In this document: piece by piece, positions 18,099-19,375 of the stretch
Numbering within the stretch: position 1 is the first letter of the stretch
How the letters are laid out: the number at the start of each line of letters is the position of its first letter
Position numbers and translations under genes: made by a program
Virus record (IMG/VR): IMGVR_UViG_3300045838_000021
Location: 1 to 24,044 of that record
Source: a virus
Lineage: Duplodnaviria; Caudoviricetes
Direction: 5' to 3' (one strand)
DNA length: 24,044 nucleotides
The notes under the pieces: model-generated
What the model was told of the DNA's origin: nothing
Databases searched by the model: none
What the model saw: the letters and a program-made list of their open reading frames with translations, nothing else

Positions 18099-18488
18099 TT
18101 ACGGTCCTCCCGGTCCTGGGGCACCCCCAGCGGCCATGCCGAGGATCCTTCGTAGCTCGTCGGGGTCGGTGGGACCCTGCATCCCCTGCATGGGGGCACC
18201 CGGACCGGCCATGCCCGCTGCCGCGGGAGGGGCAGGGGGCGCTCCCTGCGGTGGACGAGGACCACCCGGGGCCCCGCCCGGCCCGCCAGGTCGGCCGGGT
18301 GCCCCCATGGCGGCCTGGGCTGCCTGGTCCCCAGGTCCTCCCTGTCGAACGAACTGGAGCAACGCCTGCTGGAGCTGCATCCCCTGCTGGATGTTGGCGT
18401 CGGGGGCGGTCATGCCCTCGGCCAGCATGGCCAGGATCTTCTTCAGGTACTCGCTCCAGGTGGTGGTGGCGTTGCTCGCGGATGCCAT
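18099..18488 (-). CDS. Pro/Gly/Gln/Met-rich hypothetical protein (129 aa)
   Basis: TAATG overlap; helical N-terminal half then low-complexity tail; stop abuts the scaffold ATG. Confidence 0.75.
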   Translation of the reverse strand: MASASNATTTWSEYLKKILAMLAEGMTAPDANIQQGMQLQQALLQFVRQGGPGDQAAQAAMGAPGRPGGPGGAPGGPRPPQGAPPAPPAAAGMAGPGAPMQGMQGPTDPDELRRILGMAAGGAPGPGGP

Positions 18489-18626: not shown

Positions 18627-18701
18627 TCAACCCCTCAGCTTGCGGCCGCGGTGCTTGGAGTACCGGGCCATGTTCTTGGCGACCTTCGCACGTCGCGCCA
18701 T
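18627..18701 (-). CDS. Arg/Lys-rich micropeptide 6 (24 aa)
   Basis: MARRAKVAKNMARYSKHRGRKLRG; TGATG overlap with peptide 5; AGAGGA upstream. Confidence 0.75.
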   Translation of the reverse strand: MARRAKVAKNMARYSKHRGRKLRG

Positions 18702-18790
18702 CAGATCCTCTTTCCGCCGTGCCGGGCCTTGCGGTACTTCCGGGACCGGGTGGCCGAGCCGGTGACGGCTCCACGGCCGCGGCGGGCCAT
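18701..18790 (-). CDS. Arg/Lys-rich micropeptide 5 (29 aa)
   Basis: MARRGRGAVTGSATRSRKYRKARHGGKRI; TGATG overlaps at both ends. Confidence 0.78.
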   Translation of the reverse strand: MARRGRGAVTGSATRSRKYRKARHGGKRI

Positions 18791-18858
18791 CAGTACCGCT
18801 TCCTGTTCCGACCGCCCCGGGCCTGGACCCGGAACTTGGCTGCCTTGGCCACTGCCAT
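18790..18858 (-). CDS. Arg/Lys-rich micropeptide 4 (22 aa)
   Basis: MAVAKAAKFRVQARGGRNRKRY; TGATG overlaps at both ends; AGAGGA upstream. Confidence 0.78.
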   Translation of the reverse strand: MAVAKAAKFRVQARGGRNRKRY

Positions 18859-18935
18859 CACATCCTCTTTTTCCGGCGGGACATCCGGCCGGAGTGACCG
18901 AATGTCCCGCCACGGATCCTCGCTGCCTTGGCCAT
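18858..18935 (-). CDS. Arg/Lys-rich micropeptide 3 (25 aa)
   Basis: MAKAARIRGGTFGHSGRMSRRKKRM; TGATG overlaps at both ends; GGAGG upstream. Confidence 0.78.
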   Translation of the reverse strand: MAKAARIRGGTFGHSGRMSRRKKRM

Positions 18936-19006
18936 CACTTCCTCCGGGATCTGCGGCCGTGCCGCTTCTTCTCCGGGGCGAAGTCCTTGAGCCGGGAAGC
19001 AACCAT
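18935..19006 (-). CDS. Arg/Lys-rich micropeptide 2 (23 aa)
   Basis: MVASRLKDFAPEKKRHGRRSRRK; ATG 6 nt after the peptide 1 stop; TGATG into peptide 3. Confidence 0.72.
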   Translation of the reverse strand: MVASRLKDFAPEKKRHGRRSRRK

Positions 19007-19012
19007 CGGTAC

Positions 19013-19051
19013 CTACTTCCGCTTGTGGTGACGACCGCGACGACGCGCCAT
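19013..19051 (-). CDS. Arg/Lys-rich micropeptide 1 (12 aa)
   Basis: MARRRGRHHKRK; very strong SD GGAGGAGGT (19058-19066) 6 nt before ATG. An in-frame GTG at 19144 could give a 43-aa form. Confidence 0.7.
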   Translation of the reverse strand: MARRRGRHHKRK

Positions 19052-19146
19052 GCGAGCACCTCCTCCCCGGGGAACGGGCCGACCCCCGGAGTCGTCCATG
19101 GGATCAGCGTCAGGAGCGACAACCGGGCCCCGACGGCGAGGCACTA

Positions 19147-19347: not shown

Positions 19348-19375
19348 ATGTTACTTCTTTCTGGCTCTCTGTCGA
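19348..19375 (-). promoter_or_regulatory. Putative sigma70/SigA promoter giving a leaderless transcript
   Basis: TCGACA-N16-TAACAT-N6-GTG(19341), with an AT-rich upstream segment inside the portal 3' end. Confidence 0.6.

Follow-up and report, generated by a model that had tools for sequence, protein, structure and literature searches.

What might a tailed phage gain from a row of very short, strongly basic open reading frames (ORFs) set among its head genes? The question is raised by a 24,044-nt stretch of DNA, positions 1 to 24,044 of the IMG/VR virus record IMGVR_UViG_3300045838_000021 (Caudoviricetes; the whole stretch is called the window below), in which six such ORFs lie back to back between the gene for a P22-like portal protein and that for an acidic, scaffold-like protein. 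As judged from the DNA and from its relatives, all six are genuine micro-genes that are coupled by overlaps and belong to the head operon of the phage; the cassette which they form is widespread and unannotated. As to their role, the odds are about even (0.5) that the peptides are made in bulk, loaded into the head and there partly neutralise the packed DNA.

The array and its coupling

The six ORFs tile the minus strand, which also carries the head genes, from position 19051 down to 18627 (Table 1; coordinates are positions in the window). They were present exactly as quoted in a first-pass annotation of the window, which had not given the strand; their 135 residues include 55 Lys or Arg and 2 Asp or Glu, with a net charge of +53. 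At 12–29 aa and 1.6–3.2 kDa, the peptides are small, Arg/Lys-rich and nearly acid-free, and computation thus bore out the protamine-like composition ascribed to them. The Shine-Dalgarno (SD) sequence GGAGGAGGT of ORF1 and the four consecutive TGATG junctions were likewise found in the sequence; a 6-nt gap separates ORF1 from ORF2, and the SD duplexes of ORFs 2–6 have energies of −5.5 to −9.5 kcal/mol. The array, first described as ending with the sixth ORF, forms part of a longer coupled chain, which runs on into two ORFs not listed before, one of 45 aa (p45, 1-nt gap) and one of 129 aa (p129, TAATG), and then into the scaffold-like gene (TAAATG). Its placement between portal and scaffold was confirmed on the portal side by family matches (phrog_156, PF16510); the 309-aa protein on the other side has no family match, and the label “scaffold” reflects its position and acidity.

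A filter for short basic ORFs (ATG start, 10–40 aa, K+R ≥33%, D+E ≤10%, at least two Lys) returned seven ORFs on the minus strand of the window and none on the plus strand; six are the array and the seventh is the C-terminal 13 residues of the portal. A chain of more than one such ORF arose in none of 200 Markov-simulated windows and in none of 5,000 shuffles of the 425-nt region. The codon usage of ORFs 2–6 is like that of the large genes (GC content at third codon positions, GC3, of 0.80–0.90 vs. 0.88), Lys is encoded over all six ORFs by AAG in a ratio of 18:1, and AGG is among the two final codons in each of ORFs 2, 3, 5 and 6, where it builds the SD of the following gene. Searches with ORFs 2–6 gave no family match in PHROGs, Pfam or NCBIfam (ORF1 is too short for searching), and a blastn search of cultured phages with the cassette yielded nothing beyond short noise matches. 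Full-text searches in the main texts of open-access papers turned up no description of such micro-genes in tailed phages.

The first-pass annotation had further taken the six for a multi-gene family of diverged duplicates with shared MA(R/K) starts. Such starts are present in four of the six (ORF2 begins with MV, ORF4 with MAV), and in comparison with composition-preserving shuffles none of the 15 peptide pairs was similar at p<0.05, three being near 0.05; the term “gene family” is therefore unsupported, because composition accounts for whatever likeness there is among the six.

Conservation of ORF1 in distant phages

A search with the portal alone returned no relative in IMG/VR, while portal alignments led to 122 loci with best-segment identities of approximately 38–57%; the closest portals (P0002 and P0003, 84–85% identity) stand outside the comparisons of DNA loci. 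Sixty-four loci with a full interval between portal and major capsid protein (MCP) were dereplicated to 54, that is, 53 relatives and the window. Under a strict pattern, a peptide of the type of ORF1 (MARR type, 11–16 aa) is encoded in 39 of these 53 portal-found relatives; re-examination of 12 of the 14 pattern-negative loci showed near-variants in six, other basic ORFs in one and no convincing candidate in five with short intervals. Short basic ORFs with an SD or coupling amount to 139 in 136,889 nt of portal–MCP intervals, as compared with 5 in 89,962 nt of portal coding sequence. A set of MARR-type genes was drawn from 104 pattern rows representing 78 distinct genes; the one in L025 was removed because it is merely the end of a longer ORF, and 74 genes had enough flanking sequence. 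An SD of −8 kcal/mol or stronger precedes 63 of these 74 (median −14.4).

The association with the head genes was also recovered from the opposite direction. Three DNA scans of IMG/VR for the peptide only, which used no portal information, gave 10, 30 and 5 matches; all 45 are in frame, including 35 from patterns with a frame-free gap. A portal lies upstream in 42 and an MCP downstream in 36, and at least one of the two, on the same strand, in 44. Twenty-seven of the 45 contigs were new relative to the portal-based finding, and 21 encode portals with about 20% identity or less, or without a BLAST match (about four groups with near-duplicates). Each of five distant or intermediate MCPs checked belongs to phrog_9953, and all six new loci found out of sample, by MCP alone, bear a MARR-type gene with an SD. 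The claim of real, translationally coupled micro-genes in a head operon is thus supported, their position being kept across distant phages.

The ORF1 peptide itself is identical in L034 and L036, and one distant clade has a 12-mer one residue off ORF1, with variation that is synonymous only (including Ser TCN/AGT exchanges) and with insertions and deletions in the flanks. The ratio of nonsynonymous to synonymous polymorphism (pN/pS) over 155 pairs of MARR-type genes, 0.18, is biased, since the genes were picked by amino-acid pattern, and is not leaned on. Relatives hold from none to about six such basic ORFs, alike in composition and variable in number and sequence. The check proposed at first, to look for the array in the intervals of related phages, thus came out differently for its members: ORF1 is widely conserved and basic ORFs are enriched; the last 10 residues of ORF4 recur unchanged in a coupled ORF of 22 aa from L023, a match which 0/200 shuffles equalled, and a scan for the ORF4 motif found the contig of L023 only; for ORFs 3, 5 and 6 no orthologue beyond shuffles was detected among 288 candidate ORFs from 100 loci.

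That only ORF1 (and ORF4) is selected, ORFs 2, 3, 5 and 6 being incidental, or that the array is a polyprotein recoded by −1 frameshifting or readthrough, would fit with these missing orthologues, with the marginal one of ORF2 in the same candidate set and with the strong hairpin which ORF3 overlies. The perfect tiling, the ATG starts, the gene-like GC3, the SD-forming AGG codons and the absence of chains from the 5,000 shuffles make this very improbable. A fused frame or recoded stop was rejected because the offsets at the junctions of relatives (−1 in 28, 0 in 11, −4 in 3, +1 to +8 in 17) and the stop codons of their MARR-type genes (TAG 37, TAA 36, TGA 4) vary freely.

In a clade of 55-kb genomes (L123, L125, L126, L128, L129), HNH/endonuclease-like ORFs have, as far as the sequence alone can tell, apparently been inserted among the portal, peptide and scaffold genes, the peptide gene being intact.

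A possible loading of the peptides into the head

If the peptides partly neutralise packed DNA, the following course of events may be envisaged. Transcription would start at a promoter at the end of the portal gene, and coupling by stop and restart, aided by SD-like AAG-AGG (Lys-Arg) codons at the ends of the peptides, would provide for bulk synthesis alongside the scaffold and capsid proteins. Electrostatic attraction to the acidic scaffold (−27) and capsid (−10) would bring the peptides into the prohead; in a sister clade, a folded helical-hairpin “handle” (phrog_2423 or phrog_1375) ahead of the MARR peptide could do so instead. They would then stay in the virion as counter-ions. With each peptide present once per capsid subunit, at 415 copies, a T=7 capsid and a 37-kb genome being assumed, about 30% of the DNA phosphate charge would be cancelled; a nitrogen-to-phosphate ratio (N/P) of 1 would, as computed, take about 1,400 copies of each peptide. 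Such partial neutralisation might ease packaging or stabilise the particle, short of a full condensation that jams ejection. The variable number and sequence of the peptides, together with their kept composition, fit a bulk supply of charge. Arg5 and spermine were described to condense encapsidated DNA and to jam ejection (PMC7377361; PMC2771126), which is why partial rather than full neutralisation matters; full, protamine-style condensation is argued against by these polycation data from pressurised capsids (PMC7377361).

A link to the virion is offered by fused forms of the peptide. On an MCP tree, made by a quick method only, the window belongs to a 16-row clade without fusions, and a 20-row sister clade is the one that has them; there, the MARR peptide has its own SD, yet also continues, in frame, the C-terminal end of a small folded domain. 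ORFs of phrog_2423 run in frame into the MARR peptide in 13 of the 14 listed cases and additionally in L138 and L164, with linkers of 11–14 codons; in five loci (L029, L047, L064, L082, L157) a phrog_1375-like domain (weak match, E 0.002–0.009) takes this place, and the near-identical phages L029 and L030 differ in their fusion domains. Structure prediction for the fusion gives a helical hairpin that is followed by a basic, disordered tail (predicted local distance difference test, pLDDT, 85–88 in the core and 67 overall). The fold has no Foldseek match in PDB or BFVD at E≤0.001, the best BFVD rows being uncharacterised phage proteins, and matched unnamed clusters alone in the ESM Atlas.

Outside the MARR-bearing phages, phrog_2423 was detected at a loose cut-off in 204 records of cultured phages, often with head-protease annotations among the 40 matches listed, including Acinetobacter phages; in Caulobacter phage Ccr2 it lies inside a tRNA cluster. 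In Pbunavirus its gene follows the portal and minor capsid genes and precedes the next large head gene (e.g., phiFenriz, L165:4001-4207). The member from SCUT-S1 is 95.6% identical to P0121, which matches phrog_2423 with E 7e-29; by gene order, mass and record annotation it was equated with ORF22 of that phage (7.46 kDa), which is reported, at 77% coverage by 7 peptides, from virion ghosts made with LiCl (PMC6521218, Table 1). This protein occupies the same genomic slot as the array, the Pbunavirus member being without a MARR tail. The fusion with phrog_2423 is indirect support for packaging of the peptides, and the fused handles of both kinds suggest a small capsid-loading tag. As phrog_2423 stands alone, sits at head-protease genes or bears MARR tails, it may possibly be such a tag in general.

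A predicted hairpin of this kind, which presumably resembles the coat-binding domains of scaffold proteins, would also suit a role as helpers of prohead assembly, in which the peptides bridge the acidic scaffold and capsid proteins or offset their charge, and then exit with the scaffold when DNA is packaged. The negative charges of the scaffold-like protein and the MCP, the acidic tail of p64 (encoded between portal and array), the coupled co-expression of the peptides with p45, p129 and scaffold, and a weak match of the fusion domain of L027 to the scaffold family phrog_1018 (E 0.015) are in line with such a role. It is nevertheless rather improbable: peptides rich in Arg, His and Gly and nearly devoid of acidic residues are typically nucleic-acid binders, the mature particles of Pbunavirus still contain the phrog_2423 member as far as the published virion analysis goes, and the fold of the fusion is without a PDB match.

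Among known systems, the closest to packaged basic peptides of a phage are protein J of microviruses (phiX174, G4, alpha3) and VP8 of gokushoviruses, which, like the array, are tiny, basic and phage-encoded. Microvirus J is encoded by a single gene and has an ordered capsid-binding part. Both J and VP8 belong to single-stranded DNA phages with T=1 capsids, while the array is found in a double-stranded DNA tailed phage with a terminase motor and varies in gene number; apart from the missing family matches mentioned above, ORFs 5 and 6 found no J protein in PDB at E≤10. J/VP8 is described as a very small basic peptide inside the capsid, with a role in DNA packaging and 60 copies (PMC11945456). 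These viruses are closer than the adenovirus and baculovirus precedents named first: adenovirus VII and mu, protamine-like proteins with which the DNA in the virion is bound or condensed (PMC4189039), and the protamine-like basic DNA protein P6.9 of baculoviruses belong to eukaryotic viruses with nucleoprotein cores under the control of proteases or phosphorylation, whereas the DNA of tailed phages is pressurised and its full condensation blocks ejection. The position and coupling of the array would suit expression along with the structural genes, as in the protamine-like class.

The assumption that tailed phages do without such proteins overlooks the internal proteins IPI, IPII and IPIII of T4, for each of which about 360 packaged copies are stated, and which are non-essential for assembly (PMC9958956). 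Being head-operon products of a tailed phage which are loaded into the prohead core, they may serve, by analogy, as a precedent for loading. They are, however, folded proteins, the gp21 protease trims a capsid-targeting sequence from their N-termini, and IPI is an anti-restriction factor; the array consists of unstructured polycations of 12–29 aa which are alike in composition only and have no shared leader, and a scan of 20 window ORFs (24 kb of a partial genome) revealed no prohead protease.

Several observations weigh against packaging and charge neutralisation. Apart from the missing protease, the peptides of the window have no recognisable targeting sequence, and no phrog_2423 domain was found in its 24 kb; the link to the virion is two steps off, the domain coming from another phage family and having been detected in DNA-free ghosts. 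As condensing Arg5 and spermine jam ejection, an excess of peptide would do harm. None of seven GenBank relatives (Mx8, Mx9, BUCT555, ppBjS10J-1, 45A6, PK1, ctMlz233) has a MARR-type gene, BUCT555 encoding a 52-aa basic protein after its portal. L037, L043, L044, L050 and L055 have short portal–MCP intervals, no basic peptides and MCP charges of −13 to −22 vs. a median of −7; compensation by a basic capsid in phages without peptides was rejected, the capsids being more acidic, which is the opposite trend. Finally, ORF1 hardly varies even between distant clades, which hints that it has a specific partner and does more than supply bulk charge. The acidic capsids of these five phages might, on their part, reflect a different ionic habitat.

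A specific target would also be at hand if the peptides acted in the cytoplasm on host nucleic acids, by binding rRNA or ribosomes like bL37 and bS22 or by compaction of host or phage DNA at a late stage of infection, and were not virion components; this is judged unlikely. The strict conservation of ORF1 would suit it, and actinobacterial bL37 and bS22, nucleic-acid binders of 20–35 aa rich in Arg, Lys and His, resemble the array in size and composition. Among 177,635 PDB sequences, the sole match of ORF5 is bL37 (E 1.4). Relatives of the portal are located on two contigs of Acidimicrobiales metagenome-assembled genomes, a weak hint at an actinobacterial host, and bL37 is described as actinobacterial (PMC5876184); bS22 and eL41 were reported to inhibit cell-free translation at 80 µM (PMC10085706). 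Membership of the phage peptides in bL37 was rejected: the ANHG motif (core ANHG[KR]RP) is present in 0/164 of them vs. 9/9 host bL37-like ORFs, which had been retrieved by that motif, and a bL37 profile scores them with at most 13.7 bits vs. 50–79 for the hosts (self-scores), no better than their own shuffles (mean z −0.02). The profile was built from nine host ORFs out of 14 matches in 151 Acidimicrobiia-class genomes, four without a nearby ATG and one unrelated being left out. The resemblance thus appears purely compositional, though a similar mode of action may apply; a cytoplasmic role also fails to account for why the genes keep their place among the head genes and why the peptide is fused to a virion-associated domain. 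The bL37-like ORFs of Acidimicrobiia-class genomes (27–28 aa; L170-L183) have GTG starts in several cases.

The high net charge would also be in keeping with cationic, membrane-active peptides for lysis or antimicrobial action, and antimicrobial activity was reported for bL37 and bS22 peptides (PMC10085706). As Leu, Ile, Val, Phe, Trp and Tyr make up just 8–18% of ORFs 3–6, and as the array lies in the head operon rather than in a lysis module, this is hardly credible.

Should the peptides be packaged, tailed phages would have a gene-encoded means of adjusting the charge of their DNA and the pressure in the capsid, a point of relevance to the balance of packaging and ejection forces in vivo; a strategy of viral chromatin so far credited to eukaryotic and single-stranded DNA viruses would extend to them, and annotation as well as trypsin-based virion proteomics would overlook a widespread class of structural genes. 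More tentatively, and at somewhat less than even odds, a broad uncultured P22-like lineage with phrog_9953 capsids might package a partly protamine-coated genome, in which a tunable array of polycations of 11–30 residues, free or anchored on the shell through exchangeable helical-hairpin handles, sets the capsid pressure; if so, the genes would have been hidden by falling below the limits of gene callers and tryptic proteomics. A gene of 12 codons persists in clades whose portals are about 20% identical, and even under the other explanations a near-invariant 12-residue gene heading a capsid operon amounts to a conserved function.

Transcript features and neighbouring genes

A predicted sigma-70-type promoter (Table 1) would presumably give rise to a leaderless head-operon transcript. 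Its pattern recurs near the portal stop in 15 of 84 loci (window included) vs. 38 of 838 control windows; in 13 of the 15 a start codon lies 5–8 nt past the −10 box, and three of the 15 are near-duplicates without peptides. Downstream of the MARR-type gene, a hairpin (z<−2) is predicted in 43/74 cases vs. 12/150 portal-internal controls. The window has none directly downstream of ORF1; the 16-bp hairpin inside ORF3 is possibly its counterpart. In one distant clade a bulged stem-loop covaries just before the SD, 12 of its 16 pairs showing two-sided changes. The hairpins might protect an mRNA under heavy translation or serve the peptides as binding sites.

It is therefore conceivable that the cassette is mainly cis-regulatory, either through an arginine-rich peptide on its own RNA hairpin, as in Tat or N, or as a ribosome relay which sets scaffold and capsid expression and in which ORFs 2–6 are spacers. 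Lambda N and Tat represent an arginine-rich-motif peptide with a conserved cognate RNA element in cis, and the post-MARR hairpin, the covarying stem-loop and the ORF3 hairpin would go along with such a type. Upstream of the MARR-type gene, structure with z<−2 is found in 7/74 cases, about the control rate, with none in the window, so that a universal upstream bulged hairpin was rejected, and Rfam returned no match in seven sources for RNA features of the cassette. A relay, in turn, requires neither extreme basicity in each member nor fusion to a folded domain. Overall, a mainly cis-regulatory function seems improbable.

The bulged stem-loop, about 10–70 nt upstream of the MARR-type gene in L133, L135, L140, L141, L148, L153, L155, L156 and L160, has a bulge like UUGCGAUCU, GNRA loops in several cases and compensatory changes, and, being without a match in Rfam, is a candidate for a new structured RNA motif; related shapes occur in the L123-L132 and L139/L150 clades. 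A motif like GCGTAGACG, absent from the window, stands just after the p64 stop, 20–45 nt upstream of the MARR-type gene, in L001, L003, L011, L015, L017, L103 and L105.

Table 1. Position and properties of the micro-genes, transcript features and head genes in the window.
Feature	Position	Strand	Properties
P22-like portal, 577 aa	19351..21084	−	phrog_156 E 5.7e-41, PF16510 E 4.7e-29
Predicted sigma-70-type promoter TCGACA-16-TAACAT	19348..19375	−	overlaps portal stop; −10 box ends 6 nt before p64 GTG
p64, 64 aa	19147..19341	−	acidic C-terminus, GTG start; tblastn 42–56% identity directly after portals of relatives
Shine-Dalgarno GGAGGAGGT of ORF1	19059..19067	−	strong; duplex −15.1 kcal/mol
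ORF1	19013..19051	−	12 aa, MARR type, net +7; widely conserved member
ORF2	18935..19006	−	23 aa, net +8; GC3 0.87; best relative marginal, p=0.03
ORF3	18858..18935	−	25 aa, net +9; TGATG-coupled; GC3 0.80; holds 16-bp hairpin
16-bp RNA hairpin inside ORF3	18875..18911	−	z −3.9 and −4.1
ORF4	18790..18858	−	22 aa, net +8; TGATG-coupled; one orthologue (L023)
ORF5	18701..18790	−	29 aa, net +11; TGATG-coupled; GC3 0.90
ORF6	18627..18701	−	24 aa, net +10; TGATG-coupled; GC3 0.88
p45, 45 aa	18488..18625	−	mildly basic, conserved; tblastn 42–59% in relatives; homologues at 93% and 80%
p129	18099..18488	−	Gln/Gly/Pro-rich, TAATG-coupled; alike ORFs at that position in relatives, by eye
Scaffold-like protein, 309 aa	17169..18098	−	net −27; putative, from position, charge and homologues that precede the MCP in relatives
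Major capsid protein, 323 aa	16185..17156	−	net −10; phrog_9953 E 2.7e-53

The minus-strand order of genes is large terminase, P22-like portal, p64, the array, p45, p129, the acidic 309-aa protein, MCP, a cement protein and, later, an SU10-type adaptor; from terminase, portal and adaptor, we infer a P22-like, short-tailed phage with double-stranded DNA. For p45 and p64 no family was found in PHROGs, Pfam or NCBIfam, and p45 had matches below 0.9 alone in the ESM Atlas; PDB sequence searches with the MCP, the phrog_2423 domain, ORF6 and p45 gave no significant match. In many relatives p64 and p45 bracket the array, and they are candidate minor head proteins.

Further genes of the window include one for a glycosyltransferase of family 2 (phrog_34859, PF00535) in the tail-fibre region (12985-12323, minus strand) and, between a zinc-ribbon-like gene and the portal, a hydrophobic 38-aa ORF with an SD (21200 to ~21084, minus strand), which possibly encodes a small membrane protein. 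Near the terminase or portal of relatives, more small basic families (MPFKSE..., HPGFKA..., GKYIHLA...) with K/R-rich tails are encoded (L001:3255-3413, L003:3656-3808, L009:1868-2095, L019:3035-3408, L042:7842-8015, L067:2709-2882); one such family also has a member ahead of the terminase in Bradyrhizobium phage ppBeUSDA76-2 and is present within a larger ORF of Atu_ph07.

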